Below, piece after piece: positions 1-54,519 of a stretch of DNA of 64,000 nt. The translations under genes and the position numbers were made by a program. Source of the stretch: a bacterium (GTDB taxonomy: Bacteria; UBA8248); NCBI GenBank assembly GCA_963692865.2, contig OY843592.1, positions 1,376,001 to 1,440,000 on the forward strand. The letters are read 5' to 3'. How positions within the stretch are numbered: the first letter of the stretch is position 1; every line of letters begins with the position of its first letter. The notes under the pieces were generated by a model. The model was not told the origin of the DNA, did not search any database, and worked only from the letters and a program-made list of their open reading frames with translations.

Positions 1-5
1 GAAGG

Positions 6-308
6 TTAGGGAGCAATTATTCGCGATTTGAAAAAAAGTGTTTGTTTTTCAGCAAGGTGTTGTGAGGAAAGACTCATTCGTAATTGGATTTTTTCGTTGG
101 ATTTGCTCGCCTGAAAATACTTTTTCAACGACATAGGCAATTCGGGTGATGTCTTTGCCGAAACGTCGTATTGAGGCGTCTCGGCAGGGTAGTTATAAAG
201 ACTGACCAAACACCCATCGGTTTTACCGTGAGCTCCCGCAAGGGCTATACCGGACATACTCACAAGAAAAAAGAAAACGGTAAGTGCCACTACTTCCAGA
301 CAGCGCAT
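6..308 (-). CDS. hypothetical protein, possibly secreted
   Basis: 100-aa ORF with a signal-peptide-like N-terminus (VVALTVFFFLVSMSGIALA), divergent from the ABC operon; AT-rich, no recognised family. Confidence 0.35.
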   Translation of the reverse strand: MRCLEVVALTVFFFLVSMSGIALAGAHGKTDGCLVSLYNYPAETPQYDVSAKTSPELPMSLKKYFQASKSNEKIQLRMSLSSQHLAEKQTLFFKSRIIAP

Positions 309-547
309 GAAGAAACCCCATGAAAAAACCTGTCAAATTACATGTTTGATGATAATACCACATTAAAAGGGGATGATGAGTCCATTTTATCCCTAAAAAA
401 TACTGCATTGAAAAACAATCCCATCCCCGATAAGGTTTAGGTAAGTATTCAAAAACTGCAACTTTACAAACAAGGCACGTGGTGGTACGCATTCGTTCAC
501 TATAAATGTGGACAGTTATTCAAACCTTATTTTGGAAATAATATTTC

Positions 548-2506
548 GTGTCGGAATTTGCAAACTTGTTGAAAATGGAGAAAATCGACAAATCCTTTCC
601 AGGCGTTCATGCGCTCAAAGAAGTCGATTTCAATCTCGCCGAAGGCGAAGTTCACATCCTGTTAGGAGAGAACGGGGCTGGAAAATCCACGCTCATCAAA
701 ATTCTGGCGGGCATCTATCACGCCGACTCAGGTCAAATCGAAATCAGCGAAACTCCCACCGATATTCCCGACGCCAGAACGGGCCGCGATTTGGGAATCA
801 GCGTCATTTACCAGGAACTGAACCTGGTTCCCGATCTGAGCGTGGCCAAAAACATCTTCCTGGGTCGTGAGCCGGTCTTGCCCGGCGTAATGAGACGCGT
901 GGATTGGGCCAAAGTCGAAAAAGAATCCCGCGCAATCATGGAGCGTCTGGACGTGAGAATCGACGTCAATGCGCCGGTCCGCTCTTTAAGCGTCGCCGAT
1001 CAGCAAATGGTGGAGATTGCTCGCGCCCTCGCATTTGACTGCAAGATTTTGGTGATGGATGAACCTACGTCCTCTTTGAGCGGCCACGAAATCGAGGAAC
1101 TCTTCAAGGCCGTGAATCGACTGCGAGAGCATGGCGTCGGCGTTATTTACATTTCACATCGACTTGAAGAAGTCCACGAGATTGGAGATCGCGTCACCGT
1201 TTTACGCGATGGGGAATACATGGGCACTTGGGAAGTCAAGGAGGTGGAACTCGATTTCCTGATCACGCAGATGGTGGGGCGCACGCTTGATGAGAAGTTC
1301 CCCTGGGCGCCCCGCGAGCGAGGGGAAGTGGCGCTACGGGTACGTGGACTCACCCGAAACGGCGTATTCGAAGACATCAACTTTGATCTGCATTATGGTG
1401 AAATTGTAGGCCTCTCAGGTCTCGTAGGTGCTGGAAGAACCGAGGTGGCGCGCGCCGTCATGGGAGCAGATGCCGTTGATAACGGAACTGTCGAAATAAC
1501 CAATGCGACTAAAGAAAAAGAGGAGATACAAAATCTCCCTCACTATCCGCTTTGGATGGCGCTCGTCGATGTGGTTGTTTTCATACTGGCTTTGCCGTTG
1601 TTCACCGTGATCTTCCAGGGAATTTACGATCCTTTCACGCTCAATATGAACTCACCGCCCCCACTGTTCAGCGCTAATTGGTTTTACGAATGGATTCTTG
1701 GGGGACCGTTATACAACATACCAAACGGCCCCACTCCCTACATCGTCGCGACCGGGTTGGCAGTCATAAGACAATTGGGACTTTGGTTTCTCGAGCGGCA
1801 ATATCATTGGCGCACCTTGGTTATCGACTTTGCGAGTTGGTACGCCCTAGCGGTATGCGCGATGGTCTTTACGAGTCTTTTCACTCAGAATTTCGTTCTT
1901 GAATGGGTCATGATCTGGGGCGGCGTCGCCATGATTGTGATTCGATTCCTGACAATCCTTACCCATGAGCGCAAATGGACTCCAACCCTGGCTATACGAC
2001 GCGGGCTGGGGCTTTTACCCGAGGACAGAAAAACCCAGGGCCTCACCCAAGTTCTATCAGTTGCATTTAATACAACAAGCGCAAATCTCCGCCGCCTCAT
2101 CAAACGGTGGCTGCTCAATCTGAGTCTGGAAAAAGACTTCGTCGATGAGCACATCAATCAATTGAAAATCATGACGCCGGATCAGGAGACGCAAATACGC
2201 TTCTTATCAGGCGGCAATCAGCAAAAAGTCGTTCTCGCCAAATGGCTCTTCAGACGCGCCAACGTGCTCATATTCGATGAGCCGACTCGCGGGATCGACA
2301 TAGGCGCAAAATTCGAAGTTCACTCGCAAATGCTACAACTTGCAAAAGATGGCGCTGCGGTAATGATGATCTCGAGTGAACTGCCTGAGATACTGGGGAT
2401 GAGTGATCGTATCCTGGTAATGCGCGAAGGGCGACTCACTGCAGATATCGACCGAAACGATGCAACGCAGGAAGGAATACTACGCTACGCCATGACGGCG
2501 GATTAA
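548..2506 (+). CDS. sugar ABC transporter ATP-binding protein (RbsA/MglA-like, two NBDs) with a membrane-domain insertion
   Basis: Walker A GENGAGKS, LSVADQQMVEIA, MDEPTSSL, second NBD LSGGNQQKV and FDEPTRGID; ~150 extra hydrophobic aa between GTVEI and TPTLAIRRGLGLLPEDRK. Confidence 0.9.
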   Translation: MSEFANLLKMEKIDKSFPGVHALKEVDFNLAEGEVHILLGENGAGKSTLIKILAGIYHADSGQIEISETPTDIPDARTGRDLGISVIYQELNLVPDLSVAKNIFLGREPVLPGVMRRVDWAKVEKESRAIMERLDVRIDVNAPVRSLSVADQQMVEIARALAFDCKILVMDEPTSSLSGHEIEELFKAVNRLREHGVGVIYISHRLEEVHEIGDRVTVLRDGEYMGTWEVKEVELDFLITQMVGRTLDEKFPWAPRERGEVALRVRGLTRNGVFEDINFDLHYGEIVGLSGLVGAGRTEVARAVMGADAVDNGTVEITNATKEKEEIQNLPHYPLWMALVDVVVFILALPLFTVIFQGIYDPFTLNMNSPPPLFSANWFYEWILGGPLYNIPNGPTPYIVATGLAVIRQLGLWFLERQYHWRTLVIDFASWYALAVCAMVFTSLFTQNFVLEWVMIWGGVAMIVIRFLTILTHERKWTPTLAIRRGLGLLPEDRKTQGLTQVLSVAFNTTSANLRRLIKRWLLNLSLEKDFVDEHINQLKIMTPDQETQIRFLSGGNQQKVVLAKWLFRRANVLIFDEPTRGIDIGAKFEVHSQMLQLAKDGAAVMMISSELPEILGMSDRILVMREGRLTADIDRNDATQEGILRYAMTAD

Positions 2507-2528
2507 TCCGTATTCGGAGGTAAATTGA

Positions 2529-3542
2529 ATGAGCGCCGCCGCCTCTACAGGAAATGAGAAGCTCTTCTTGGGATATTCGGTCAAGGATATCCCCTGGGAG
2601 CGTATACTCCTCATTTCCGCGTTTGTCGTCTTGATGATCTTCTACACTTTTGCGACCGAAAATTTCCTCACCCTCGAAAACTTCGTGAATGTCGTGCGGC
2701 GTGACGCATGGCTCTTTTTCCTGGCCTATGCGCAAACATTGGTCATCGTTTCGGCGGGATTCGATCTTTCACAAGGCTCCATCATGAGCGTGGTAAGTGT
2801 CATGGCCTGGAGCGCGATGCTGCATTTCGGGTTTTTCGTCGGCCTCATTGCGGGCCTCGGTATCGGTCTGCTGTGCGGTGTCATCAATGGGTTTTTCGTC
2901 GGCGTAGTCAGGGTGCAGCCGTTCATCGCCACATTGGGGATGCTCTTTATCGGCAGCGGCACTGCCCAGCTTTGGACCGGCGGACTTCAGATGGGAGGCG
3001 CACGCGAGGGCGCAACGCTGCCCAAACACGTTGAAGAAGCATACGTTTTTCTGGCGAAGGGAAACCTAGGGCCCATCCCCTTCACTTTCATCTGGATAAT
3101 CATCGCGTTGGCCACGATGTGGTATCTGCTCAAATACACCCGTTTTGGCACGTATGTGTACGCCTTGGGTGGAAACGAACAAACGGCCATTTCCGCGGGC
3201 ATTAACTTTCCAGGCATGAAGATCGCCATTTTCGGCATAGGCGGTCTTCTATGCGGTTTCGCAGGGCTTCTTCTTTCAGCGAACGTCAGCGCTGCGGGCG
3301 AACCCAGGCTGGGCGGCGGCGATCAACTGCTCCAGTCGATCGGAGCAACCATCATCGGCGGCACGCATATTTTCGGCGGGCGAGGCGGCGTGCTGGGTAC
3401 GACGCTGGGTGTTTTCCTGATCATATTCCTGGTGAACGGGCTGAACATCATGGGAATCGACACTTACCGGCAACAAATCATCGTCGGCTTGGTGATTCTC
3501 GCCTCCATCTGGGTCAGCACCCTGCGTGAGCAAAAAAACTAA
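2529..3542 (+). CDS. sugar ABC transporter permease (RbsC-like)
   Basis: Multi-TM; GFDLSQGS, PFIATLG, TRFGTYVYALGGNEQTA and IGATIIGGT motifs. Confidence 0.92.
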   Translation: MSAAASTGNEKLFLGYSVKDIPWERILLISAFVVLMIFYTFATENFLTLENFVNVVRRDAWLFFLAYAQTLVIVSAGFDLSQGSIMSVVSVMAWSAMLHFGFFVGLIAGLGIGLLCGVINGFFVGVVRVQPFIATLGMLFIGSGTAQLWTGGLQMGGAREGATLPKHVEEAYVFLAKGNLGPIPFTFIWIIIALATMWYLLKYTRFGTYVYALGGNEQTAISAGINFPGMKIAIFGIGGLLCGFAGLLLSANVSAAGEPRLGGGDQLLQSIGATIIGGTHIFGGRGGVLGTTLGVFLIIFLVNGLNIMGIDTYRQQIIVGLVILASIWVSTLREQKN

Positions 3543-3557
3543 GGGAGATTCAATATC

Positions 3558-4553
3558 ATGGCGAATGTAGCGGAGGCTCCTGTCAGACCTTCTGCCTCCT
3601 TCTTGGCCAACTTCAATTACGAGAAATATGGTTTACTCGTCGTATTCATCATGATGATGATCATATTTTATATTCTCCAGTTGATGGGCTACGTGAACAA
3701 CTTCATCGAAGCCCATAATCTGACCAACCAACTCAGAAACGCATCTCTCCTGTTCTTCATCGTCGCCGGACAGAGCATGGTGCTCCTCGTTTCGGGCATC
3801 GATCTGAGCCAAGGTTCCTTGCTCAGCCTCTCGAGCGTCGTGATGGCGCAGGGCATACTGGACTTCGGCCTTGCCGTGGGCGTGTTGATGGGCATCGGAA
3901 TGGCGACGATTTTCGGTTTCATCAACGGCTACCTCGTGGGCCGCGTGAAGATACAGCCTTTCATCGTCACCCTGAGCATGCTCTTCATCTGCGCAGGCAT
4001 CGCCCTGGTATTCACGGGCGGACGCACTATCCACCAGTTCACGGGCGAGCAAAAAGATATCCTTCAAGCCATCGGCCTTACGGATCTCTTTCATATCCCC
4101 GGCACATTGTTCATCGCCATTTTCTTTTTCATCATTCTCCACCTGATGACGAAACGCACGGTGCTCGGCCGGGCAATCTATCTAACCGGCGGGAACGAAG
4201 AGGCCGCGCGCCTCTCAGGCATAGACACAGGCAAGGTGAAACTCATTTGCTATTTGATCAGCGGCATCTGCGTGGGCATCACTTCGTTCCTTTACCTGGC
4301 GAGACTCCCGGCCACGAACGGCCTCGCGGGATTCCAGCTTGAATTCCAATCTTTGGCGGCCACTGTGGTGGGAGGAACGACGTTTCACGGTGGCGAGGGC
4401 GGTGTAGCGCAAGCTGCGATCGGGACGCTGTTTCTGACTTTTCTGCTCAATGGCCTTATTCTCTTGGGCGTGGGAACATTCGCCCGGGAGGTGGTGGTGG
4501 GCTTGTTGCTCATTGCAGCAGTGGTTTTGAGTTCCCGCAAGCGGCGGGAATAG
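3558..4553 (+). CDS. sugar ABC transporter permease (second RbsC-like subunit)
   Basis: GIDLSQGS, PFIVTL, GGNEEAARLSGI and AATVVGGT motifs. Confidence 0.92.
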   Translation: MANVAEAPVRPSASFLANFNYEKYGLLVVFIMMMIIFYILQLMGYVNNFIEAHNLTNQLRNASLLFFIVAGQSMVLLVSGIDLSQGSLLSLSSVVMAQGILDFGLAVGVLMGIGMATIFGFINGYLVGRVKIQPFIVTLSMLFICAGIALVFTGGRTIHQFTGEQKDILQAIGLTDLFHIPGTLFIAIFFFIILHLMTKRTVLGRAIYLTGGNEEAARLSGIDTGKVKLICYLISGICVGITSFLYLARLPATNGLAGFQLEFQSLAATVVGGTTFHGGEGGVAQAAIGTLFLTFLLNGLILLGVGTFAREVVVGLLLIAAVVLSSRKRRE

Positions 4554-4641
4554 GAAATATGCTCTTTCGGCAGTCATTTTCCCCTTTCGCGGAGGAGAGC
4601 CCTTCGTCCGTGAAACCCATTCTGCGACGAGGAGATTCAAG

Positions 4642-5700
4642 ATGAAAAAACTGTTCCGCACTTTCATGATTCTCGCTTCCGTCGTCACGTTCATGTTCGT
4701 GTCGATGGCAGCGACCCCGGACGCCGACGCCCGGGTGAAGGCGAAGAAGAAATACAAGATCGCCGTCGTCGTGCCGAACGGCGTCGATCCCTATTTCTTC
4801 TCGAAATGGTACGGCAGCGTTCAGGCGGCCAAAAAAGCCGGCGTGACGGTGACCATGTTCGACGCGGGCGGCTATGAATTCCTGCCCAAGCAGGTGGCCC
4901 ACGTGGAGGACATCATCGCGGCGAAGTACGACGGGATGATCATCTGCCCCATCAGCACCAAGGGCATGGTGGATGCGGTTCACAAAGCGATGGACAAAGG
5001 CGTCAAGGTCGTCGTGGACAACATCGACCTCGACAGCGATCGCGTCAAAAACCGCGTCATGAAAAACAGCTACGAGCTGGGCGTTCTCATCGCCTCCACC
5101 CTGGCGCACGCCATCGACTACCAGGGCAAAGTCATGATGTTGCCCGGACCCAGCGGCATCGAGATGGTGACTTCCATGGCCAAGGGTTTTGAGGAATATA
5201 TGAGCCACTACCCGAAAATCAAGATTGTGGCCAAGGAATTCACCAAGTCCAACGTGCAGCACGCATTCCAGACGGCGGAAGACCTGCTCAAGAAACACCC
5301 CGACGTCAAAGGCATCTACCCCTGGGCGACGCTCATCGCCCGCGGCACGGTGGACGCCGTGAAAGCCGCCGGTTACAAGCCCGGTCAGATCAAGATCGTG
5401 ACGCACAACCTCGTCGTCGGCATCGAGAAAGACATCCGTGACGGCTGGGCGCATGCGGCCGTTTTGGCCGAGCAAATCGCCATGGCGAGTGAAGCAGTTT
5501 ACAACGTGATCGATCTCATCGAGGGACGCCAGCCTCCCGGCACGCCCTACCGTGGCGGCACGCTCAGCTACATCCAGAATTACATGGCCTATCAGCACAA
5601 TCTCGACATTCTGGATCGCAGCGGCATCGAAGCGCCCAAGAATTGGATGATCAAGCGCCAAAAACGCGCGGCGAACATCGTGGGCGGCAAACGCCGCTAA
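4642..5700 (+). CDS. sugar ABC transporter periplasmic substrate-binding protein (RbsB-like)
   Basis: Signal peptide; IAVVVP..DPYF, DGMIICP and HPDVKGIY patterns; operon context. Confidence 0.88.
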   Translation: MKKLFRTFMILASVVTFMFVSMAATPDADARVKAKKKYKIAVVVPNGVDPYFFSKWYGSVQAAKKAGVTVTMFDAGGYEFLPKQVAHVEDIIAAKYDGMIICPISTKGMVDAVHKAMDKGVKVVVDNIDLDSDRVKNRVMKNSYELGVLIASTLAHAIDYQGKVMMLPGPSGIEMVTSMAKGFEEYMSHYPKIKIVAKEFTKSNVQHAFQTAEDLLKKHPDVKGIYPWATLIARGTVDAVKAAGYKPGQIKIVTHNLVVGIEKDIRDGWAHAAVLAEQIAMASEAVYNVIDLIEGRQPPGTPYRGGTLSYIQNYMAYQHNLDILDRSGIEAPKNWMIKRQKRAANIVGGKRR

Positions 5701-5720
5701 GTTTCATCCCCACTGAAAGA

Positions 5721-5752
5721 AAAAGCCCCGCCGATTACCCGGCGGGGCTTTT
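5721..5752. terminator. bidirectional rho-independent terminator
   Basis: aaaagccccgcc-gattaccc-ggcggggctttt between convergent genes. Confidence 0.8.
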
Positions 5753-5768
5753 GCATAAGCCGCCTCGC

Positions 5769-6851
5769 CTACAACCCCTTCACGTATATGCTGAGTCCCA
5801 TCCGCCCCGTCGAGCCGCCGGGCTTGGGATCGGAAATCTTATCCGTCTGGACTTCTACTGCGCCATCCATCGCTCGTACCGTCACGGGATAGAACCCGTT
5901 TCCCCAAAAGCGCATGGGAAACGCCCAGACGCTCCAGGCGAGAGGCCCCAGGGGCTTTTTGAGCAAGGCCGGCGCCCAGGGCCGCAATCGCTCTCCCTGC
6001 CCGTAGGTTACTTCCACCTTGCGGATTCCCCGCTCTCCCGCAAACGCCGAACCCACGAGCCAGATATTCGCCGTTCGAACCTCGACGCGCCTTCTGGGAG
6101 CCTCGAAACGGCTGAGCGTCTCGACAATCGCCTCATCCGACCAGCCGCGCCTTTGCCAATAGCCGCCGTGCCCCTTGGTAGAGATTTCGACCGATTCGAT
6201 CCACTTCACGTTCTTGAGGCCGTAGGTCCCCGGCACGAGGAGCCTGAGCGGAGCGCCATGGTCTCGCGGCAGATTTTCCCCGTTCATCCGGACGCAGAGA
6301 AGCGTTCTCGAATCCAGGGCCTGCTCCAGTGATATGGAATCATGATATCCATCCGCCGCGCGGAAAATGACCCTCGCGGATACCGAGCGGCGCACGCCTT
6401 CCGCTACGCCCGCGCGCTCGATGAGGCTTTTGAGCGGCACTCCCTCCCACAAGGCGTTTCCTATCTGGCCGCCGCCCACCGGGTTGCCGATGCAGGTCAT
6501 CGTCGCCCAGGTCTTCTCCTGCCCGAGCGCGCTCAACTCCGCAAAAGTAACGGAAAATGGCTGATTTACCTCACCTTTGATGTTTAACCGCCATTTGTTG
6601 CGGGAGATTCCCGGCGATGAATGGCCGATGCTCTGCACGTAGAACTCATCGTTCGCCGTAACCTCGGGAACGACGCGCGCGGCGAACTCGAGAATATCCT
6701 CCCCGGCTCCGGGCGTCTCGACGGGGCGGCTGTTGAGCCAGTCGAACAGGCGGCCCATCATGGAAGCCCCCGCGTCGCGCGGAATCCCGATCACGGCCAG
6801 GGGCGCGATTCCCGCCGCGGTGCGCAACAGACGGCGTCTGGAAACGTTCAT
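5769..6851 (-). CDS. Tat-exported molybdopterin-dependent oxidoreductase (sulfite oxidase/MsrP-like family)
   Basis: Twin-arginine SRRRLLR, Mo-ligand TCIGN, GNALWEGVPL, HGAPLRLLVPG.YG.KNVKW, GYWQRRGW; start placed at ATG 6851 after GAGGAG. Confidence 0.88.
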   Translation of the reverse strand: MNVSRRRLLRTAAGIAPLAVIGIPRDAGASMMGRLFDWLNSRPVETPGAGEDILEFAARVVPEVTANDEFYVQSIGHSSPGISRNKWRLNIKGEVNQPFSVTFAELSALGQEKTWATMTCIGNPVGGGQIGNALWEGVPLKSLIERAGVAEGVRRSVSARVIFRAADGYHDSISLEQALDSRTLLCVRMNGENLPRDHGAPLRLLVPGTYGLKNVKWIESVEISTKGHGGYWQRRGWSDEAIVETLSRFEAPRRRVEVRTANIWLVGSAFAGERGIRKVEVTYGQGERLRPWAPALLKKPLGPLAWSVWAFPMRFWGNGFYPVTVRAMDGAVEVQTDKISDPKPGGSTGRMGLSIYVKGL

Positions 6852-7352
6852 GGCGCTCCTCAAGGACGAAAACGCCCTGAATTCTACGATAAAACCGCCG
6901 ATTCACGAAATTTCCGCCCGCCTCTCCCGCAACTTCCCGCAAATCCCCGCATTTGCCGTCATCGCGTGAGGCGCGTATCGTGGCAGAATTCCCCTGCGCC
7001 CGGATTCCCCGGCGTCATTTCCCCAGGAAAAAATTGTCGGAAATCTACCGAAAACCCCCCTGAATTTATACAATTTTATCCAATTTTTCAGGAATTATTA
7101 TTTGCATTTTACACTTTCCGCGCCTCGCCCGAGCGGCGGCCCGGTTCCCGCCCTCCGCGCCGCCTTCGCCGCCGGAAAAAACGAAGGCCGGCGGGCGGCC
7201 TCTCCAGCGTACCCCGTCGACGCGAAAACCCGGCGGCGGCAATTGCGGGGAAATGCGTGCAGATCGTTATCGCCGAAGGAAAGTCGATCCTGACCCGCGA
7301 GGGGGGAATGGTTCTCTTTCTTCTCGTTGGTTGTGTCGAACCCTCCTTCCCC

Positions 7353-7658: not shown

Positions 7659-8324
7659 CTAATCCGGGTTCTCGCCGACCCGGGGGTAGGCGACCTTGCC
7701 CCAGTTGGTCTTGGGGCTTTCATCCATAACGTCATCCATGACGTCTAGAATCGCCGGAACGATGTCCTCCATGATGAAGCGGCCTTGTGAAAGCTGCGTC
7801 CGGCCCCATCCTTCGGCGAACGTCACGCCCCCGTGGAAGACCTGGTTGCGGAGTTGATAAAGCCGCCAGAAGACTTCCCGAAAGACGCTTGATACTTTTT
7901 CGTTCTCAAAGTCTTCCCATGCGCTGTCGTTTTTTTGTTTGAATCGCTTGCTCCAGGCCATGCCCTCCGGCTCGCCGCGCACCCATTGCCAGAATGGTTT
8001 GAACGCATATCGATTGTCGAGAAGGTCCTGGATATGCTTGTTGTAAGCTGGACTCCAAAGAATGGCTCTTATCTTCCCCTTCTGCTTGTTGTCGTGATAT
8101 ATGACCTTATTCAGGAACGTATTGATTCTCTGGGTTTCGCTGGATCCGTCGCCATCCGCGCCGGTCGGATCGCCTCCGTAGGCCGCGTTGAAGGCGATCC
8201 ACAGGCAGATGAATTTCTCCTCGTCCGAGGCGACGTTTCCGCTCCGCTCCTGCCAACTGCGCGCTCTGCGCATGCGGTGTTCGTTATGCTCGCCTTGAGG
8301 TATCTCGTCGCTGGTTCGGGTCAT
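7659..8324 (-). CDS. HEPN domain-containing protein (putative RNase/toxin)
   Basis: FICLWIAFNAAYG N-terminal helix and HEPN Rx4H motif LYQLRNQVFHGG. Confidence 0.75.
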   Translation of the reverse strand: MTRTSDEIPQGEHNEHRMRRARSWQERSGNVASDEEKFICLWIAFNAAYGGDPTGADGDGSSETQRINTFLNKVIYHDNKQKGKIRAILWSPAYNKHIQDLLDNRYAFKPFWQWVRGEPEGMAWSKRFKQKNDSAWEDFENEKVSSVFREVFWRLYQLRNQVFHGGVTFAEGWGRTQLSQGRFIMEDIVPAILDVMDDVMDESPKTNWGKVAYPRVGENPD

Positions 8325-8593: not shown

Positions 8594-9379
8594 CTAGAAG
8601 GCGTAGCGCAGGGAAATCCATACGCCGTGGCCGGCGAGGCGCGCGCGCGTTTTGCCGATGAGGATCGAGCGGTCGCTGTCCGGGCGCAGGACGCGGATGT
8701 TCCCCTGATCGGTTTCCACGGCGCCCGAGTCCTCGTAGCGCCAGGCGACGTCCAGGGTGAGCCGCTTGGTGAGCGGTTTTGCGACGCCCGCCGAGACGCT
8801 CCAGGCGAGGTTGATGCTTCGTCCGCCCGGCACGGTGGTCGTCTGCGAGAGGCCCGGAAAACGCATGAGCGTCCGGCCGATGCGGGCGTACGACAGGCCG
8901 CCGCCCAGCCCGATGAACGGGCGCAGGCCGCCGATTCGCGGGAGGTCGAGCCAGGCCGTCAGGATGGCCGAGGTCGTCGAGAGGTCGGCGGTGACGGACT
9001 GGCTGCCCGGGGTATTGCGGTAGTTGGCTTCGCCCTCGAAGGCGAGGTCGGGGCGGTGCGCGACGGCGGCTTCCAGGCGCAGGGAGGGAGCGACGGCGCG
9101 GCCCAGGCCGAGGGCGAAGCCCGCCCCGGCGCCGAAGTCGCCCACAGCCTGCGTCGGATTTCCGTCGTTCCCGGTTCCGCCTCCGTAGAGGGCGGCGACG
9201 TCCTCGCGCGTGGGGTCGACGTCGCGAAAGCGCGTCTCCCGCGTCCAATCGACGCCCAGGGCGGCGCGGACGTAGAAACCCTCCGCTCCGGCTGAGACGC
9301 AGGAGAGCAGGAGGATCGCCGTCAGGATCGGGAGAACGGTCCACCGCTTCGGCGCGGCGGCGGGAGTGCGGTTCGGCAT
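8594..9379 (-). CDS. outer membrane beta-barrel protein (opacity/OMP_b-brl-like)
   Basis: Signal peptide, GFYVRAALG, LRLEAAVAHR, PFIGLGGG, LTLDVAWRY, C-terminal SLRYAF. Confidence 0.82.
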   Translation of the reverse strand: MPNRTPAAAPKRWTVLPILTAILLLSCVSAGAEGFYVRAALGVDWTRETRFRDVDPTREDVAALYGGGTGNDGNPTQAVGDFGAGAGFALGLGRAVAPSLRLEAAVAHRPDLAFEGEANYRNTPGSQSVTADLSTTSAILTAWLDLPRIGGLRPFIGLGGGLSYARIGRTLMRFPGLSQTTTVPGGRSINLAWSVSAGVAKPLTKRLTLDVAWRYEDSGAVETDQGNIRVLRPDSDRSILIGKTRARLAGHGVWISLRYAF

Positions 9380-18063: not shown

Positions 18064-18798
18064 CTATCCTTTGCGTCGCTTTGTGGTGGCCCTGCGCGGA
18101 CGACGCCCGCGGGCAACCCGCTTTATCAAGCGTTTAAGCTCTTTCATCTCCAGCCATGGCTGCTTCGCATGGATCATACTGTGGCAATTCGAACACAGTA
18201 AAACCAGATCGTTTAAGCGAGTCACGCTTCCGGGCTTCAAATCGCGCAACGGCTTGGTGTGGTGGCACTCGATGAAGCCTTCGCCTCTTTCTTCTCCATA
18301 CTTTTCCGTGAACTCGAACCCGCACGCTTCACAGACTAGCCGACCACTTTCTCGGCGTACTTTTTCCTTCTTCTTTTGGGCGAGTTTACGGTTTCGCTCT
18401 CGGACGATATGAGACTTGGTAAGAATTTTCCCCTCGGGAGCCTCGGCGATGAAGCCCATCAACTCCGTATCTTGCGCCGGTCCCGACTTTTGATCCGCCT
18501 TGAAATGTTGTTTTATGGTGTTGGCCGTGGAGCTTAGCCTGTCCGGGTCATCGGCGAACTCATCCCACACTTCTTGAACGAGTTTGGAACCCGATTCAAG
18601 ACCTTTGTGATCATTACTAGGATCATGAAAGGCGAAATTCCCTAATCTTGTCCGCACACTACCTTCGGATCTCCTCAAAAGGTTACACAATTCCTTGAAC
18701 TTTTCGGGGTCGCTCTTAAGGGGATTTTCTCCGAGGGAAAAATAGTCATTCAGCGTCAGAATTACTTCATCCCTGGTCCAATTATTTCGTTTGCTCAA
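18064..18798 (-). CDS. HNH endonuclease (McrA-like)
   Basis: NWTRDEVIL N-terminus; ERN..L, CEACGF, IECHHTKPL, LLCSNCHSMIH; TTG start after GGAGG; low GC. Confidence 0.82.
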   Translation of the reverse strand: MSKRNNWTRDEVILTLNDYFSLGENPLKSDPEKFKELCNLLRRSEGSVRTRLGNFAFHDPSNDHKGLESGSKLVQEVWDEFADDPDRLSSTANTIKQHFKADQKSGPAQDTELMGFIAEAPEGKILTKSHIVRERNRKLAQKKKEKVRRESGRLVCEACGFEFTEKYGEERGEGFIECHHTKPLRDLKPGSVTRLNDLVLLCSNCHSMIHAKQPWLEMKELKRLIKRVARGRRPRRATTKRRKG

Positions 18799-18871
18799 GC
18801 CCTTTCCTCCGCTTCGACTCGCTCCCGTTTCAACATCCCGAACGGTCGGCGATCCCCCGCGATGCGGACGG

Positions 18872-18899
18872 AAAAAGGCGGCCCGCCGCATGGGCCGCC
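18872..18899 (-). terminator. rho-independent terminator after the selenoprotein gene
   Basis: Minus strand ggcggccc-atgcggc-gggccgcc-ttttt. Confidence 0.65.
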
Positions 18900-18954
18900 C
18901 GCGCGTCCGCACATCGTTTGCGCCCCTCTCACGAGAGGCGGAAGCATCTTTTTG

Positions 18955-21078: not shown

Positions 21079-21604
21079 GGATGTAAGGAAACACCGTTTT
21101 ACCGAATGAGACCGGTTGTTCCTGGATGCCAACGTCTGGTTGTACAACTTCTGTCCTGACGCGCAGCCACCCGGACCTTCTCCCAAAGTAGAGGTTTATT
21201 CGCAGGCGTTCACCGACATTCTTCAAGCGAAAAGCCAAATTTTTATCGATGTTCTCGTCACGTCGGAGTTCATCAACAGATACGCCAGACTGCGATGGGA
21301 AAATGAAGCGTCCGGCACGGAATTCAAGGTTTTTCGCAACAGCGCGGAATTCACGGATGTCGCTCGGGAAATCGCTTGTCAATCAGGGCGGGTAGTTAGT
21401 TTTTGTTCACGGTTGGAAAGCGGGTTTGTGAAGTTGCAGATAGACGATTTGCTCGACACCTACAGCGAGGGTGGATCCGATTTCAACGATCAGGTGATAG
21501 CGGAATTGTGCAAAAGAGAGGGCCTGACTCTACTCACGCACGACGGCGATTTCGAAAATCAGGAAATATCCATTCTGACCGCGAATCCGCGTTTGCTGAA
21601 TTAA
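21068..21604 (+). CDS. PIN domain protein; in-frame TGA at 21107-21109 (pseudogene or restart at TTG 21116)
   Basis: MPAKDVRKHRFTE*DRLFLDANVWLY...SEFINRY...DFNDQVI...LLTHDGDF PIN acidic motifs. Confidence 0.75.
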
Positions 21605-21703: not shown

Positions 21704-21778
21704 GACGAACGATGACGGATATCCCCCCGCCCCCCAAATTCACGCGGCCTTGTGAATCTGATATGCTCGGGCCGTGGG
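21704..21778 (+). repeat. imperfect direct repeat copy 2 (probable ftsH promoter)
   Basis: cccccaaattcacgcggccttgtgaatctgatatgctcgggccgtgg with ttcacg and TGnTATGCT. Confidence 0.72.
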
Positions 21779-21848
21779 TCCCCAAGTCTCGCGCCGCGCC
21801 GCCGCCGGATGAGCGAACCAGCCGCTATCCTCCCCCAAGGAGGGGACG

Positions 21849-23678
21849 ATGAACAAGAAAACGCAGTTTTCCATCGGGTATTTCCTTTTCATCTTCATTA
21901 TCATGTCCCTCATCCACACCCTCTTTTTCCAGGGGGCGCGCTACCAGCGCATCCCCTACAACGAGTTCCGCGCGATGCTCAAGGAAGGCGACGTGGAGCG
22001 CGTCGACATCCGTGGCGACCGCTTGCAAGGCGTCCTGAAACGCCGCGACGCCGACGGCCGGCAGCGGTTCTTCGAGACCGCGAAGGTGGCCGACCCCGAC
22101 CTCATCGAGCTCCTGGAAGGCGCGGGCGTCATCTTTCAGGGCCAGTTCGAGCCGCCCTGGCTGGTGCAGGTGTTTACGAGCTGGGTGCTGCCGCTGGCGA
22201 TCCTCTTCGCCATCTACGCCTTCGTGCTGCGCCGCATGGGTCCCGGCCAGGGGGTGATGGCCTTCGGCAAGAACAAGGCGAAGATATTTGCGGAAAAGGA
22301 AGTGGGGGTGCGCTTCGCCGACGTCGCGGGCGTGGACGAGGCCAAGGCGGAACTCGCCGAGGTGGTGGATTACCTCAAGAATCCGGATCGCTACCTGAGA
22401 CTTGGCGGCAAGATTCCGCGCGGCGTCCTGCTGGTGGGGCCTCCCGGCTGCGGGAAGACGTTGATGGCCAAAGCCGTGGCGGGAGAGGCGGGGGTCTTTT
22501 TCTTCAGCATCAGCGGGTCCGAGTTCGTGGAAATGTTCGTGGGGCTGGGCGCGGCGCGCGTGCGCGACCTGTTCGAGCAGGCGATGGAGAAGGCCCCCTG
22601 CATCGTCTTCGTGGACGAGCTGGACGCGCTGGGCAAGGCGCGCGGCGTGGGGAACATTGCGGGCGGGCACGACGAGCGCGAGCAGACGCTCAATCAGCTC
22701 CTGGTCGAGATGGACGGCTTCGACACCCGAAAGGGGGTCATCATCATGGCGGCGACGAACCGCCCCGAGATTTTAGACCCCGCCCTCCTGCGCCCGGGGC
22801 GCTTCGACAGGCAGGTGCTGGTCGACAAGCCGGACCTGAGCGGCAGGAGGCATATTCTGGAAGTCCACACGAAGGTGCTCGTGCTGGGCGGGGACGTGGA
22901 TATCGAGCGGCTCGCCGAGATGACGCCCGGCCTCTCGGGAGCCGACCTCGCCAATCTCGCGAACGAGGCGGCGCTCCTGGCGGCGCGCCACGACCGCGAC
23001 GCGGTGATGATGGCCGACTTCGAAGAGGCCTTCGAGCGCGTGGCGGCGGGCTTGGAGAAGCGCTCGCGCGTCATGACGAGCGAGGAGCGCCGCCGGGTGG
23101 CCTACCACGAACTCGGCCACGCCATGGTGGCCGAACTCGTCGGCACGGCGGACCCGGTGCAGAAGGTATCCATCATCCCGAGGGGCCTCGCCGCCCTGGG
23201 ATACACCCTGCAGCGGCCGACGGAGGATCGTTACCTGCTCTCCAAAAAGGAGCTAGAGGACAGGATCGCCGTCCTCCTCGCGGGCCGCGCGGCGGAAGAG
23301 GTGGTGTTCGGGGAGGTCTCCACGGGGGCGCAGAACGATCTTCAGCGCGCGACCGACATGGCGCGCTCCATGGTGACCGAATACGGCATGAGCGAGCGCT
23401 TCGGCCCCCACGCGATGGGAGGGACGCCGCGCTCGCTGTTCCTGGGCGGCGGGATGAACGGCGCGTCCCATCTCGACATCAGCGAGGCGACCCAGCGCGA
23501 GGTGGACGAGGAGGTGGAGAAAATCCTGGACGGCGCCTCTGTCCGCGCGAGGGAGATTTTGACCGAGCGGCGCGACGACCTCGAAGCCCTCACCGCGCGC
23601 CTGCTCGAGCAGGAAACCATCGGCGGGGACGAACTCCGCACAGCGCTGGGCGTGGGGGAAGCGCGAAGCGGAGGATGA
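21849..23678 (+). CDS. ftsH: ATP-dependent zinc metalloprotease FtsH
   Basis: Two TM segments, [51 protein letters not shown]. Confidence 0.96.
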
Positions 23679-23732
23679 GGCGGTAAGATTTTGTGTTGTG
23701 CAGAAGATAAATCGCTTGGTTGATTAGAGTGC

Positions 23733-34383: not shown

Positions 34384-35760
34384 ATGACCGGCACAGTGAG
34401 CGACATCGACGCCTGCACGAAGCGTCTCGAAGTCGCCGTCCCGCGCGCGGAGGTCGCCGACGAGATGGATCGCGCCTACAGGCGGCTATCGGGGCGCGTG
34501 AAGATGAAGGGCTTCCGGAAGGGGAAAATCCCCCGCCGCGTGCTCGAGCGCTACTACGGCGAGGAGGTGCAGGCCGAGGTTCTGAACCACGTGATATCGA
34601 CTTCCTACCGCAGCCTGCTGGAGGACAGGGGCATGCGCCCGGTGGGCGAGCCGAACGTGACCGACATCAATATGGACGACGACGCGCCCGAGTTGACGTA
34701 CAAGGCGACGGTGGAGGTGATCCCCCCCTTCGAACTCGGCGAGTACGAGGGGCTTAAACTCAAGGTCCAGCGCCGCGCGGTGACGGACGAGATGGTCGAC
34801 AAGCAGATCGAGGCGCTCCGGCAGCGCGCCGCCACGTTCGAGGACGTGGACAGGGAGGCCCGGGCGGGGGACTACGTTCTCTTCGACATCGAGGGCTTCG
34901 AGGATGAGGAGGCCGTGCCCGGCACCCGGGGGGAGAACCAGGCCCTCATGATCGGGGGCGATGAGAGCGAAAAGGAATTGAGCGACGCCCTCACAGGCAT
35001 GAGGACGGGCGAGGAGGCGGACGTCGATATCGACGTTCCAGAAGGCGCCTCGCCCAACATCGCGGGCAAGAGCCTCCGGTTCCACCTGCAGTTGAAGGAA
35101 GTGAAAGAAGCGCATCCGCCCGAACTGGACGAGGAGTTCGTCAAGTCCCTGGGCCGCGGCTACGCGAGCACGGAGGATTTGCGGGCGGACGTAGTCAAAG
35201 AGATGGAATCCATGGAGGATGCGAACGCGCGCGGCCAGGGGATATCCGAGCTCCTGAAATCGTTGCTGGAGGCGCATCCCTTCGAAGTCCCCCCCACGCT
35301 GGTCAAGGGGGAGGCGGATGAGCAGATTCGCGAGTACGAGCGCAGGCTGCGCCAGGAAAACCCCGACGCTCAGCTTTCGGCAGCCAGGATCGAGGAGTTG
35401 CATGAGGAGGTGACGCCCCAGGCGGAGGAGCAGGTGCGCAGGCTCATCCTCGTGGAGCGCATCCGCGAGGCCGAGGAAATCGAGGCGAGCGCCGAGGAGG
35501 TCGAGGCGCAGATCAGGCTCTCGGCCGCGCGCTACGGCATGACGCCCGAGAAGCTTCGCGAGCGGATGATGACGACCGGGGCGATGGCCTCGCTCGTCTC
35601 GAACATCAACTACAACAAGACGGTGAGTTGGCTGTATGATCAGGCCGACGTGGAATTCGACGTTCACGATGCCGCCGAGCACGAGGCGCATTCCCCCGGC
35701 TCCGAAGAGGACTTGGGCGAGGAGCGCTCGGCAGACGGCGATTCGAAAGAGGATGGATGA
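34384..35760 (+). CDS. tig: trigger factor
   Basis: Ribosome-binding KGFRKGKIP, FKBP-like domain; tRNA-Leu-tig-clpP-clpX synteny. Confidence 0.94.
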   Translation: MTGTVSDIDACTKRLEVAVPRAEVADEMDRAYRRLSGRVKMKGFRKGKIPRRVLERYYGEEVQAEVLNHVISTSYRSLLEDRGMRPVGEPNVTDINMDDDAPELTYKATVEVIPPFELGEYEGLKLKVQRRAVTDEMVDKQIEALRQRAATFEDVDREARAGDYVLFDIEGFEDEEAVPGTRGENQALMIGGDESEKELSDALTGMRTGEEADVDIDVPEGASPNIAGKSLRFHLQLKEVKEAHPPELDEEFVKSLGRGYASTEDLRADVVKEMESMEDANARGQGISELLKSLLEAHPFEVPPTLVKGEADEQIREYERRLRQENPDAQLSAARIEELHEEVTPQAEEQVRRLILVERIREAEEIEASAEEVEAQIRLSAARYGMTPEKLRERMMTTGAMASLVSNINYNKTVSWLYDQADVEFDVHDAAEHEAHSPGSEEDLGEERSADGDSKEDG

Positions 35761-35763
35761 ACA

Positions 35764-36414
35764 GTGGCTCTCGTACCCATGGTGGTGGAACAGACGAACA
35801 GAGGCGAGCGGGCGTATGACATCTACAGCCGCCTGCTCAAGGAGAGGATCATCTTTCTGGGCACGGCGATAGACGACACCATCGCGAACCTCGTGACGGC
35901 CCAGCTTCTTTTCCTGGAGGCGGAGGAGCCCGATAGGGACATCGCCATGTACGTGAACAGCCCGGGCGGGGCCGTCACGGCGGGTCTCGCCATTTACGAC
36001 ACGATGCAGTACATCAAGCCCGACGTGTCGACCATCTGCATCGGCCAGGCGGCGAGCATGGGCGCGCTCCTGCTGACGGCGGGCGCGAAGGGCAAGCGCT
36101 ACGCCCTGCCCAACTCGCGCATCCTGATCCACCAGCCCCTGGGCGGCGTGCAGGGTCAGGCGAGCGACATCGACATCCAGGCGCGCGAGATTCTCCGCAT
36201 GCGCGAGGAACTCAACGAGATTCTCGCGAGGCACACCGGCCAGTCGATCAAGCGGATTGAAAAGGACACCGATCGGGACAATTTCATGACGGCCGAGCAG
36301 GCGAAGGACTACGGCCTGCTCGACGACGTGATCGTCGCGCGCACGGACGCGTCGAATCTCATTTCGGGCGACGGCATGGATGACGGCCAGAATCAGGAGA
36401 ACAACGGCTCCTGA
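35764..36414 (+). CDS. clpP: ATP-dependent Clp protease proteolytic subunit
   Basis: [34 protein letters not shown]. Confidence 0.98.
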
Positions 36415-37708: not shown

Positions 37709-37867
37709 GCCGGCTCCCGCATCGTTTCTCCGTCAGTCGAGCGTTTCGTGAGTCTTTAGCCGCTTGGTCCGCTTCGCGCGGCATCCGGGGAGTCTGCCCC
37801 AAGGAGGGGGCGGGTTGGTTTTTTTCGTAAGGGGCGTTATTTTTCATTCGGGTGGGGAAGGCGCGCG

Positions 37868-37897
37868 TTGACAATGCGCGGGCCGCTTCCCTATCAT
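37868..37897 (+). promoter_or_regulatory. sigma70 promoter for tRNA-Val/thrS
   Basis: TTGACA-18 bp-TATCAT. Confidence 0.65.
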
Positions 37898-37923
37898 TTC
37901 GCTATGCCGGATATACCGGACGA

Positions 37924-37998
37924 AGGCGCGTAGCTCAGGGGGAGAGCGCTTGCTTGACACGCAAGAGGTCGGCGGTTCAAAACCGCCCGCGCCTACCA
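37924..37998 (+). tRNA. tRNA-Val(GAC)
   Basis: aggcgcg/cgcgcct stem, cttgc-ttgacac-gcaag, ggttcaa, CCA. Confidence 0.95.
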
Positions 37999-38092
37999 TC
38001 ATGGAATTGACGATGAGGCGAATCGCCGCCGCATCGTGGAGATAATTCAAGGAACTCGAAGAGGAGGTTGCGGCGCCAGCCAACGCCCGTTT

Positions 38093-39970
38093 ATGTCCCA
38101 GCAAACCCAGCAAAAAGACTTTCCCAAAGACGCCATCGCGATCAAGATTGGCGGCGCGACCGTTGATTTGAACCGCGGCCTTCCCGACGCCGCCGAACCG
38201 GAGTTCATCCTCCTCGATTCCGAGGAGGGACTGGAGATTCTGCGCCACAGCACGGCGCACCTCATGGCCCAGGCCGTGCAGGAGCTCTTCCCGGGCGCGC
38301 AGCTCACCATCGGCCCTCCCATCGAAAACGGGTTTTATTACGACATCGACGTCGATGCCGCCTTCACGCCCGAGGATTTGAAGACGATAGAGGCGAGAAT
38401 GAAAAAACTCGCCAAGAAGAAATACGCCATCGAGCGCGAGGACATCTCCCGCGCCGACGCGCTTGCCCTTTTCGAGGAAAGGGGCGAGAGCTACAAGATA
38501 GAGATGATCCACGATTTGCCCGAGGACGAGGCGCTTTCGGTCTACCGCCAGGGCGACTTCGTGGACCTGTGCCGTGGGCCGCACGTTCCCGGCACGGGCT
38601 GGCTGCGCAACTTCAAGCTCCTGAGCGTGGCGGGCGCATACTGGCGAGGCGACGAGAAGAACAAGATGCTCCAGCGCATCTACGGCACCGCCTTCGCGAC
38701 GAAAGAAGACCTGGCCGACCATCTGCAGAAACTCGAAGACGCGAGAAAGAGAGACCACCGCGTCATCGGCAAGCAACTCGGCATTTTCCTGGTCGATGAG
38801 GACGCGGGCGGCGGCCTCATCTACTGGCAGCCCCGGGGCGCGACCGTCAAGAAGGTGATCGAGCGCTTCTGGGAGGATGAGCACGTCAAGCGCGGCTACC
38901 AGCTCGTCTCCATCCCCCACATCACGCGCGACGTGCTCTTCAAGACCTCCGGCCATTATGATTTCTACCGGGAAAACATGTACGTCCTGAACATCGACGA
39001 GGATGAATACGTCCTGAAGCCCATGAACTGCCCGGGCCACATCCTCATCTACCAGCAGAAGATACACAGTTACCGCGATCTGCCCTACCGGCTGGCGGAA
39101 TTGGGCACGGTCTACCGCTACGAGCGCAGCGGCGCGCTGCACGGCATGCTCCGGGTGCGTGGCTTCACCCAGGACGACGCGCACATCTTCTGCACGCCGG
39201 AGCAGGCCGAAGACGAAGTGCTGGGCGTCATCGATCTGGCCCACTTCATGCTCAGGACGTTCGGCTACGAGGATTTCGAGACCGAGCTCTCGGTGCACGA
39301 TTCTTCTGATTTCAGCAAGTACGCCGGCGTGCTCGAGGACTGGGAGGCGGCGGAGGAGGCGCTCACCCGCGCACTCGAAAAACGCGGTATCTCCTATAAG
39401 CGCATCGAGGGCGAGGCGGCGTTCTACGGGCCGAAAATCGACATCAAGATGCGCGACGCCCTGGGCCGGGGCTGGCAGGGGCCGACCATCCAGTTCGACT
39501 TCAACCTGCCAAAGCGCTTCGATCTGAACTTCGTCGGCGCGGACGGCGCGCGACACAAGGTCATCATGATCCACAGAACCGTCATGGGTTCGATGGAGCG
39601 CTTCGTGGGCGGGCTGATAGAGCACTACGCGGGCGCGTTCCCGGCGTGGCTCGCGCCCGAGCAGGCGCGGGTCATGACGATCACCGACGATCACATCCCC
39701 TACGGCCGCGAGGTGGAGGGCAGGCTGCTCGCCGCGGGCTTCCGCGCGGAGGGGGATTTCCGAAACGAGAAGATTGGGTATAAAATAAGGGAAGCCCAGC
39801 GAGACAAGATACCGTACATGCTCATCCTCGGCGCGCGCGAGGCGGAAACGGGAGAAGTTTCCCTGAGGCTTCGCGAGCAAGGAGACGTGGGATCCATTTC
39901 ATTGGAGGAACTTATGCAGAGAATGCGAAGCGACATTGAAACGAAATCACTCACCGCGGGAGCGGTCTGA
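38093..39970 (+). CDS. thrS: threonine--tRNA ligase
   Basis: RHSTAHLMAQA, DLCRGPHV, KPMNCPGH, RYERSGALHG, IHR..GSMERF. Confidence 0.97.
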   Translation: MSQQTQQKDFPKDAIAIKIGGATVDLNRGLPDAAEPEFILLDSEEGLEILRHSTAHLMAQAVQELFPGAQLTIGPPIENGFYYDIDVDAAFTPEDLKTIEARMKKLAKKKYAIEREDISRADALALFEERGESYKIEMIHDLPEDEALSVYRQGDFVDLCRGPHVPGTGWLRNFKLLSVAGAYWRGDEKNKMLQRIYGTAFATKEDLADHLQKLEDARKRDHRVIGKQLGIFLVDEDAGGGLIYWQPRGATVKKVIERFWEDEHVKRGYQLVSIPHITRDVLFKTSGHYDFYRENMYVLNIDEDEYVLKPMNCPGHILIYQQKIHSYRDLPYRLAELGTVYRYERSGALHGMLRVRGFTQDDAHIFCTPEQAEDEVLGVIDLAHFMLRTFGYEDFETELSVHDSSDFSKYAGVLEDWEAAEEALTRALEKRGISYKRIEGEAAFYGPKIDIKMRDALGRGWQGPTIQFDFNLPKRFDLNFVGADGARHKVIMIHRTVMGSMERFVGGLIEHYAGAFPAWLAPEQARVMTITDDHIPYGREVEGRLLAAGFRAEGDFRNEKIGYKIREAQRDKIPYMLILGAREAETGEVSLRLREQGDVGSISLEELMQRMRSDIETKSLTAGAV

Positions 39971-45374: not shown

Positions 45375-45629
45375 ATGGTCATCGAAAAATTAAACGCACT
45401 CGAAACCGCGCTCTCGAACCTTTTGGAAGAACGCAACGCCCTCAGGCGCTCCCGGGCGGAACTGGAGTCGCAAATCGAGAGGCTGAAGGAAGAAGCCCGC
45501 GCCGATTCCGAGTCCGTCCGCGTCCAGGCCGATGAGTTGGCGAAGTGCCAGGCGGAGAACGCGCGGCTTCAAAAAGAACAGGTCGAGATTCGAGAGCGCG
45601 TGGAGAAGATTCTGACGCACATCGAATAG
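45375..45629 (+). CDS. ZapB-like coiled-coil cell division protein
   Basis: Short coiled coil ending RERVEKIL, immediately upstream of zapA. Confidence 0.7.
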   Translation: MVIEKLNALETALSNLLEERNALRRSRAELESQIERLKEEARADSESVRVQADELAKCQAENARLQKEQVEIRERVEKILTHIE

Positions 45630-45673
45630 TTCGCCGCAGGAAAATGCAGGATGACGGCATAAGGAGACAACTT

Positions 45674-45952
45674 ATGACCGGGGAGAATAAACTCATGGTG
45701 GAGATATTTGGCCAGTCCCTGAACCTGAGAAGTTCGGCCAATGCCGAATATACGTTGCAACTCGCCGAATATGTGGATTCTCAAATTCACAAGGTCTCGC
45801 GTCAGTCGAACGATCCGATCAAGGTCGTTCTTCTGGCGTCGATGAACATCGCCAATGAGTTGTTCGAAGAGAAAAGAGCGAAGGAAAAAAGTGAGGAAGC
45901 CCTCTCACAACGCGCCGATTCTCTTTTGGAGATGGTGAAAAGAGCGGACTGA
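45674..45952 (+). CDS. zapA: cell division protein ZapA
   Basis: VEIFGQ....LAEYVDSQI...VLLASMNIANEL; AAGGAG RBS. Confidence 0.88.
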   Translation: MTGENKLMVEIFGQSLNLRSSANAEYTLQLAEYVDSQIHKVSRQSNDPIKVVLLASMNIANELFEEKRAKEKSEEALSQRADSLLEMVKRAD

Positions 45953-46028
45953 ACCGAAATTTCTCTCCATGCGGCAGTTTCTCCTGGTATTCATGCCCTG
46001 ATTTTAGTGTCATAATGCGTCTTTGGCT

Positions 46029-46208
46029 TGACCCTGCCGTGTTCGTGATGGGGTAAAGCATTTTGACCCAGTACGAATGTAACGGGAGTCCTGCCCCGCG
46101 GTGGTGAGCTATTCCTCTCGGGGAGTTCGGCCTAAAGCCGCGGATATGGACGCCCACCTGGCGAAAGCTGGGTTCAAAGCGAACCTCACACGGCACAAGG
46201 CGGGGTCA
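46029..46208 (+). ncRNA. ssrS: 6S RNA
   Basis: Complementary termini tgaccctgcc/ggcggggtca, ~180 nt, cccacctg...gggttcaa motif; canonical position between zapA and fau. Confidence 0.85.
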
Positions 46209-46286
46209 TTACTGAAGTGGACCTCGGGCTGCGGACGGGAGTGTTCCTCGCGGCGGCGACCCGAGTGTGGCGTTGAAAGAGAGCGC

Positions 46287-54473: not shown

Positions 54474-54519
54474 CCGCCGCACATCCGCGCCCGGGTCAGG
54501 CGGGCTGATTGCAGCATTC

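Follow-up and report, generated by a model that had tools for sequence, protein, structure and literature searches.

The locus described here raises the question of what a hydrophobic domain is doing inside the nucleotide-binding domain (NBD) of a sugar-importer ATPase. The stretch of DNA that was analysed, referred to below as the window, comprises 64,000 nucleotides (positions 1,376,001 to 1,440,000 of the forward strand of contig OY843592.1, assembly GCA_963692865.2). At 548..2506 on the forward strand it contains a gene for a CUT2-type ATP-binding cassette (ABC) ATPase of 652 amino acids (aa), with two NBDs and an internal predicted membrane domain. The original prediction, made from the sequence of the window, described a CUT2 ATPase in which both NBDs are intact and a hydrophobic four-helix domain of about 150 aa lies within the second one. 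Profile matches, alignment and hydropathy confirm this description.

The ATPase and the site of the insert

The ATPase belongs to the CUT2 family (RbsA, AraG, XylG and MglA) by its domain content, its motifs and its operon. The open reading frame (ORF) at 548..2506 (+) is open across 652 codons. It starts with a GTG codon at 548, and some homologues are annotated from the ATG at 575 (M10). The Pfam model ABC_tran matches three stretches of the protein (E 1.3e-47). The NCBIfam models AraG (E 4.8e-165), RbsA (E 2.7e-155), XylG and MglA match it in two stretches each, with the break at about aa 320. AraG scores 549.7 bits (cut-off 689) and RbsA 517.9 bits (cut-off 745). The ATPase stays below every NCBIfam equivalog cut-off, and therefore no substrate subfamily can be assigned to it. 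Homologues that carry the insert are annotated plainly as "sugar ABC transporter ATP-binding protein".

NBD1 and the first part of NBD2 are encoded at 548..1498 (+; aa 1-317), and the remainder of NBD2 at 1985..2503 (+; aa 480-652). NBD1 contains the Walker A motif GENGAGKST, Q89, a degenerate signature LSVADQQ, D171-E172 and H204. NBD2 begins with the Walker A motif GLVGAGRT, in which R297 stands where lysine is expected, and the strand GTVEI. It continues behind the insert with LPEDRK (aa 490-495), the equivalent of the Q-loop, followed by the signature LSGGNQQK, the Walker B motif LIFDEPTRGID and ISSELPE. The asymmetric motif set of CUT2 ATPases is thus found in full: the Walker A lysine, Q-loop glutamine and H-loop histidine in NBD1, and GAGRT, PEDRK, LSGGNQQK and ISSE in NBD2. 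All catalytic motifs that are invariant or nearly so among 137 aligned family members are present in the ATPase. Residues specific to the insert-bearing proteins occupy 15 of the 492 positions outside the insert, none of them in a catalytic motif. RbsA-type fused ATPases are described as having one degenerate ATP site with a second Walker A motif that lacks the lysine (PMC11466899). The degenerate-site pattern of the ATPase, with no lysine in the Walker A motif of NBD2, is the same.

The insert comprises aa 318-477 (window 1499-1980) and places about 152 extra residues where canonical relatives have a hairpin of about 8 residues. In a BLASTP comparison with RbsA of E. coli, aa 7-307 of the ATPase correspond to residues 4-301 of RbsA (44% identity) and aa 467-649 to residues 308-492 (41%). 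The hairpin at about residues 312-319 of RbsA is the counterpart of the four-helix domain. When seven canonical relatives were aligned, about 8 residues separated "G.I.I.G" from "sP.dAI..G....PEDRK", and the gap fell exactly at the insert. The insert is thereby located in NBD2: the strand behind Walker A precedes it, and LPEDRK lies 12 residues beyond it. In the window its GC content is slightly low (0.49 against 0.53), as codons for hydrophobic residues would lead one to expect. Flanking repeats were not found at the borders of the insert.

All four hydrophobic helices named in the original prediction are present. Every 19-aa Kyte-Doolittle window scoring at least 1.6 falls within aa 330-473; elsewhere in the protein no window exceeds 1.04. 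The peaks lie at 338-356 (2.71), 397-415 (1.35), 423-441 (1.83) and 454-472 (2.05). On an approximate Hessa-type scale, the scores of the four segments in the insert are 0.6, 6.0, 1.2 and 0.3, and no other segment of the ATPase scores below 7; on the same scale, segments of the two permeases of the operon range from -2.5 to 5.7. A first AlphaFold2 model built from 20 close homologues only was poor, with a mean predicted local distance difference test (pLDDT) score of 63, and was superseded by a run with an alignment of 137 sequences (38 insert-bearing and 99 canonical). In the latter model, the mean pLDDT is 82.8, and values below 50 occur only at residues 1-3, 321-323 and 360-368. It places helices in the insert at 335-356, 376-384, 396-415, 421-445 and 451-475. 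Per block of 10 residues, the pLDDT is 72-90 across aa 391-480, which contain helices 2-4, and 63-84 across helix 1.

The insert is strongly predicted, from hydropathy and modelling, to be an integral-membrane domain of four helices with both ends in the cytoplasm and with the long loop and the TQNF turn in the periplasm. This orientation fits the distribution of lysine and arginine, which concentrate in the linkers and in the loop between transmembrane (TM) helices 2 and 3. The mean number of these residues is 3.4 in the N-linker, 2.1 in the TM2-TM3 loop and 1.9 in the C-linker, compared with 0.4 in the 38-residue TM1-TM2 loop and 0 in TQNF. Since the chain is continuous with a cytoplasmic NBD, the number of helices must be even.

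All parts of the insert are encoded on the forward strand. The cytoplasmic N-linker, TNATKEKEEIQNLPHYP (1499..1549; aa 318-334), contains the invariant residues P331, H332 and Y333 and has low pLDDT at 321-323. It leads into predicted TM helix 1 (1550..1618; aa 335-357; in to out), which shows the pattern ALP.FT..FQ and in which D341 is invariant. The predicted periplasmic loop (1619..1732; aa 358-395) includes a short aromatic helix at 376-384 (NWFYEWIL). Predicted TM helix 2 (1733..1792; aa 396-415; out to in) has the lowest hydrophobicity of the four; R408, Q409 and W413 are invariant in it. The short cytoplasmic loop ERQYHWRT (1793..1816; aa 416-423) connects it to predicted TM helix 3 (1817..1882; aa 424-445; in to out), in which D427, W431, M439 and V440 do not vary. 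After the invariant periplasmic turn TQNF (1883..1894; aa 446-449) the chain would return to the cytoplasm through predicted TM helix 4 (1895..1957; aa 450-470; out to in), where E452, W453, M455, G459, M462 and R466 are invariant. Immediately after the short cytoplasmic C-linker LTHERKWTP (1958..1984; aa 471-479), NBD2 resumes with its canonical "sP.dAI" helix. The CUT2 ATPases are known as soluble proteins of about 500 aa with no TM segments; at 652 aa and with four predicted TM helices, the protein described here departs from this. A membrane-anchored ATPase is the well-supported reading of these data.

Selection, distribution and age of the insert

The ratio of nonsynonymous to synonymous substitutions (dN/dS) was calculated pairwise by the Nei-Gojobori method (NG86) for 17 genes, which gave 136 pairs; loci L014 (extra codon) and L018 (offset) were dropped. 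The ratio is 0.045 for NBD1, 0.048 for NBD2 and 0.104 for the whole insert. Within the insert, the four TM helices have values of 0.12-0.20 and the loop at aa 358-395 has a value of 0.040. For comparison, permease 1 shows 0.052, permease 2 0.043 and the binding protein 0.076. The insert is under purifying selection, and its outward loop is as constrained as the NBDs. It is conserved in 36 unique homologues, in which 20 of the 38 loop positions and all four positions of TQNF are invariant, as are the polar residues D341, R408, Q409, D427, E452 and R466 within the helices.

A search restricted to the insert recovered 22 protein clusters with 59-92% identity; 19 of them are 643-670 aa long, and three are shorter. 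In a scan of one genome per species, the insert was found at 18 loci, several on complete chromosomes, and it is in frame at all of them. Named records among these loci are all Nitrospinota or Nitrospinaceae. The insert occurs in a single clade of uncultured Nitrospinota, marine-type bacteria, and nowhere else. It is not a common feature of the family. Relatives of the ATPase were taken as the best 120 of 8000 scored, and the 99 nearest canonical relatives among these lack the insert. Their lengths of 496-521 aa bear out the statement of the original prediction that CUT2 ATPases are about 500 aa long. A protein of 759 aa (P0024) was considered as another long variant and rejected, as it has three NBD units and no insert. 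The three NBD-like units are arranged in tandem and lie on a 6.5-kb contig; the protein may be a true triple-NBD protein or the result of mis-assembly.

A search of the homologues for the same insert in the same operon was positive, with 18 genome loci. In the window, the ATPase gene is followed by permease 1 (2529..3542, +; 337 aa) and permease 2 (3558..4553, +; 331 aa), each with a full-length match to the BPD_transp_2 profile. These are followed by a periplasmic substrate-binding protein (4642..5700, +; 352 aa) of the Peripla_BP_4 family, which has an N-terminal hydrophobic segment like that of a signal peptide. The combination of BPD_transp_2 permeases with a Peripla_BP_4/1 binding protein is that of a CUT2 operon. 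The order ATPase, permease 1, permease 2 is kept at 18 of 18 loci. The binding protein gene and a convergent gene for a molybdopterin oxidoreductase are kept at 17 of the 18, because the contig of L018 ends. The nearest solved relatives of the binding protein are CUT2 sugar-binding proteins, and the whole system most likely still imports a monosaccharide-like solute. The top NCBIfam match of the binding protein is TorT (100.8 bits, cut-off 200), the partner of a trimethylamine N-oxide sensor; it scores above any sugar-binding equivalog. The permeases are unusually conserved across the clade, with a mean column identity of 95-96% and dN/dS of 0.04-0.05, and the GC content at third codon positions (GC3) of the ATPase gene ranges from 0.58 to 0.89. 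Gene content past the conserved molybdoenzyme gene varies between genomes.

The reading frame is free of internal stops in the window and in the 17 further loci checked; 16 of the frames have exactly 652 codons, and that of L014 has one more. In a tree calculated without the insert columns, the 38 insert-bearing sequences all group in a single clade (support 1.0; stem of 0.46 substitutions per site). Over the first 317 residues, identity is 76-94% within the clade and at most 58% to the nearest insert-less relatives among the best 120 of 8000. From genome to genome, the GC3 of the insert tracks that of the remaining gene over a range of about 0.56 to 0.93. The insertion is a single, old event, as follows from the single clade, the intact frames, the shared synteny, the GC3 tracking and the lack of border repeats.

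Origin and possible role of the insert

Database searches point to no source of the insert. Alone, it has no match in Pfam and none in NCBIfam. A phmmer search against 1.84 billion representatives returned only its own cluster (one match), and a profile of 20 inserts found none of 2321 scored candidate proteins of 88-280 aa at E<=10. Searched against Pfam at E<=10, the 20 inserts matched PDR_CDR (5 of 20; best 0.0017), RseC_MucC (3 of 20; best 0.033) and seven families with one member each; these weak matches are read as compositional. A profile search of PDB gave EmrE as the best match (E 0.8), with no phosphoglycosyl transferase among the matches at E<=10. The ESM Atlas gave no usable match for the insert, and tblastn of plasmid and phage collections did not match it. 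Foldseek with the full ATPase model returned NBD matches only, the best being fused double-NBD ATPases. By any of these searches, no stand-alone or remote relative of the insert is detectable in sequence. A duplicated permease segment was considered and rejected, with hhalign probabilities of 0.2-0.3% against the two permeases. Substitution for missing permease helices was also rejected: both permeases match the full profile, and the insert is therefore not making up for lost helices.

The original prediction saw a likeness to the N-terminal four-helix membrane domain of WcaJ/WbaP-type polyprenyl-phosphate sugar transferases, and homology to that domain would imply binding of a lipid carrier. 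The topology is compatible, with four helices and both ends in the cytoplasm, and the impression of similar D, W and R spacing had been the reason for the proposal. However, the sequences do not bear this out. The insert profile aligned with E. coli WcaJ with an hhalign probability of 0.2% (E 0.28), and the best BLASTP match (E 0.8) consisted of short unrelated pieces. Bac_transf and related Pfam families are absent from the whole protein and from the 20 inserts even at E<=10, and no such chain occurs among the PDB profile matches at that threshold. We consider this homology very improbable. Explanation of the insert as an artefact or selfish element, whether through chimeric assembly, a wrongly joined ORF, an intein or a functionless mobile insertion, has a negligible chance of being correct. 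The in-frame insert at 18 of 18 species-level loci, complete chromosomes included, and in 22 protein clusters speaks against it, and a chimera is excluded in practice because these 18 independent genome loci carry the insert. The same is true of the purifying selection (dN/dS 0.10) and of the GC3 that follows the gene. Border repeats are lacking, Pfam gave no intein, Hint/endonuclease or transposase match, and the plasmid and phage collections gave none either.

We propose that the insert is an integral-membrane accessory module in the degenerate NBD2 that would lie alongside the permeases and link events in the periplasm or the membrane to the ATPase; the chances for and against this proposal appear to us to be even. 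The four-helix domain would form a fifth, accessory TM module next to the permease heterodimer and would tether the NBD with the degenerate site to the membrane. Its periplasmic loop might touch the permeases on their outer face, or else the binding protein once docked; the constraint on this loop points to a specific contact of that kind. On the cytoplasmic side, TM4 would pass through a link of 9 residues into the NBD2 helix and the strand that ends in the Q-loop equivalent PEDRK. As TM4 joins the path to the Q-loop almost directly, movement of the bundle could tune ATP binding or NBD closure. Such a route would add a coupling path that is missing from canonical importers. The invariant pairs D341/R408 and D427/R466 are probable intramembrane ion pairs near the cytoplasmic leaflet and may stabilise the bundle.

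Several observations weigh against this proposal. Conservation of the helices is not significantly one-sided: 613, 61, 306 and 161 of 2000 shuffles reached the helical moment of TM1 to TM4, respectively. In rate of evolution, the TM helices exceed the permeases 2-4-fold (dN/dS 0.12-0.20 vs 0.043-0.052), which fits peripheral, lipid-exposed helices better than tight packing. TM2 is marginal as a membrane helix (Kyte-Doolittle 1.35; score of 6.0 on the Hessa-type scale) and carries the invariant R408 and Q409. The predicted template modelling score of the AlphaFold2 model is only 0.53, which leaves it uncertain how the insert is placed against the NBDs. The ion pairs rest on depth estimates only, with all four residues invariant. 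Finally, membrane insertion, association with the permeases or with the binding protein, and any regulatory effect are all predictions.

The same helix data are what a passive membrane anchor would show. In that case the helices only hold the ATPase at the membrane or stabilise its assembly with the permeases, perhaps as an answer to the conditions in which the host lives, with no signalling and no specific periplasmic contact. TM helices that evolve faster than NBDs and permeases (0.12-0.20 vs about 0.045), the lack of a significant conserved face on any helix except, weakly, TM2, and the unchanged catalytic motifs are all consistent with it. An anchor, however, has no evident use for a periplasmic loop of 38 residues in which 20 positions are invariant and dN/dS is 0.040, as in the catalytic domains, nor would the turn TQNF and the buried D, R, Q and E residues have to be invariant. 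As an anchor would not require such a loop, we regard a purely passive role as unlikely. The conserved extracytoplasmic loop would also suit a separate module for which the ATPase serves as a scaffold; it could bind a ligand or lipid, act as a receptor or dock another envelope protein, outside the transport cycle. The insert is an orphan domain with no relatives found elsewhere, and the permeases are full-length, with nothing in them that looks adapted to it. Against such a module stand the restriction of the insert to this single group of ATPase orthologues, the operon that is unchanged across all loci and the location within a folded NBD beside the Q-loop equivalent, whereas independent modules are usually fused at a terminus. 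An unrelated, hitch-hiking function leaves the intradomain position unexplained, and we hold it to be distinctly improbable.

The proposed accessory module can be taken one step further. The periplasmic loop might sense docking of the binding protein, or another periplasmic or membrane cue, and the bundle might relay it to the degenerate site of NBD2, bypassing the permeases. This more specific version is a speculative one that we would rather expect to fail. If true, it would constitute permease-independent TM signalling inside an ABC importer, and the ATPase would contain the first known NBD that holds its own TM domain.

Neighbouring genes and comparison with known systems

Elsewhere the window consists of ordinary DNA from the chromosome of a Nitrospinota-like bacterium, with metH, pheST, alaS, clpX, rny, mlaCDE, a 6S RNA and two tRNAs. 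A promoter and terminator scan of 200-6000 found sites no more numerous than in shuffled sequences, and Rfam gave nothing near the ATPase operon. Further downstream, a 221-aa ORF (7659-8324, -) is matched over nearly its whole length at 3 of 18 loci, with 44-72% identity; at a fourth, a partial match lies at the edge. A 261-aa ORF (8594-9379, -) is present at 3 of 18 loci. Neither has a Pfam match. An ORF with an HNH endonuclease domain (18064-18912, -) and one with a PIN domain (21116-21604, +) lie amid unannotated ORFs and could mark a small region of mobile or toxin-antitoxin character. Pfam at E<=1e-5 matches none of five long ORFs of 461-678 aa (21752-23686, 34486-36234, 37844-39880, 50062-51777 and 54496-55881). 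The extent of the one at 37844-39880 (-) is doubtful because a tRNA (+) at 37924-37995 overlaps it. A zapA-like ORF (45545-45952), the 6S RNA (46028-46210; Rfam 87.5 bits) and an ORF for 5-formyltetrahydrofolate cyclo-ligase (46101-46904 as listed) occur in a row, in the same order as zapA-ssrS-ygfA in E. coli. The cyclo-ligase ORF probably starts further downstream, since the listed ORF overlaps the 6S RNA. At locus L001, in a related genome, the region upstream of the operon (1-6996) encodes a TAXI-type TRAP transporter, consisting of a DctM-fused protein of 1108 aa and an NMT1_3 binding protein. An M24 creatinase/prolidase-like peptidase is also encoded there, and no sugar-catabolic genes are adjacent.

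Among known systems, the canonical CUT2 importers (TC 3.A.1.2; RbsA, AraG, XylG and MglA) are the closest. They share with the ATPase described here the fused NBDs, the combination of one consensus and one degenerate site, and the operon partners. They differ in their length of 496-521 aa (99 of the best 120 of 8000), compared with 652 aa, and in lacking the four-helix domain; the insert-bearing proteins form a separate clade on a long stem. ATP-binding and TM parts within one chain are also known from ABC half- or full-transporters such as MacB and the type IV exporters. MacB consists of an N-terminal NBD and four TM helices, and domains of the MacB/FtsX kind (type VII) have four helices with a larger outside loop between TM1 and TM2. 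In these proteins the TM domain is fused end to end, whereas here the helices lie inside the NBD fold and two complete separate permeases are present as well. FtsX and MacB_PCD were not matched by any of the 20 inserts in Pfam at E<=10, and the likeness to MacB/FtsX is topological only.

Accessory TM elements that modulate ABC transporters are represented by the helix of LptC in LptB2FGC and by CbiN in CbiMNQO, and the outside loop of CbiN is functionally important. As in those systems, a small extra membrane element could here sit beside the core TM domains and tune the ATPase or the entry of substrate. LptC and CbiN, however, are separate small proteins or fusions to TM domains and are not part of the ATPase polypeptide. 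We know of no sequence relationship between them and the insert. In CFTR, the regulatory insertion of NBD1 lies before Walker A. It is likewise an extra segment in the β-subdomain of one NBD at the degenerate site, where it can modulate function. Yet the NBD insertions known so far, this one included, are of soluble or disordered nature and differ in position, whereas the segment found here is a predicted membrane domain.

ABC NBDs are treated as soluble domains that meet the membrane only via the coupling helices of separate or end-fused TM domains. A description of a TM domain inside an ABC NBD was not found in the full-text literature, with most subscription journals outside reach. A TM bundle that is maintained by selection within the NBD fold, beside the Q-loop equivalent of the degenerate site, as predicted here, would break the rule of the soluble NBD. 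The role of NBD fusion and of site degeneracy is called unclear in PMC11466899. The insert-bearing importers offer a natural experiment on the role of degenerate sites in fused-NBD importers and on the coupling of periplasmic events to ATP hydrolysis.

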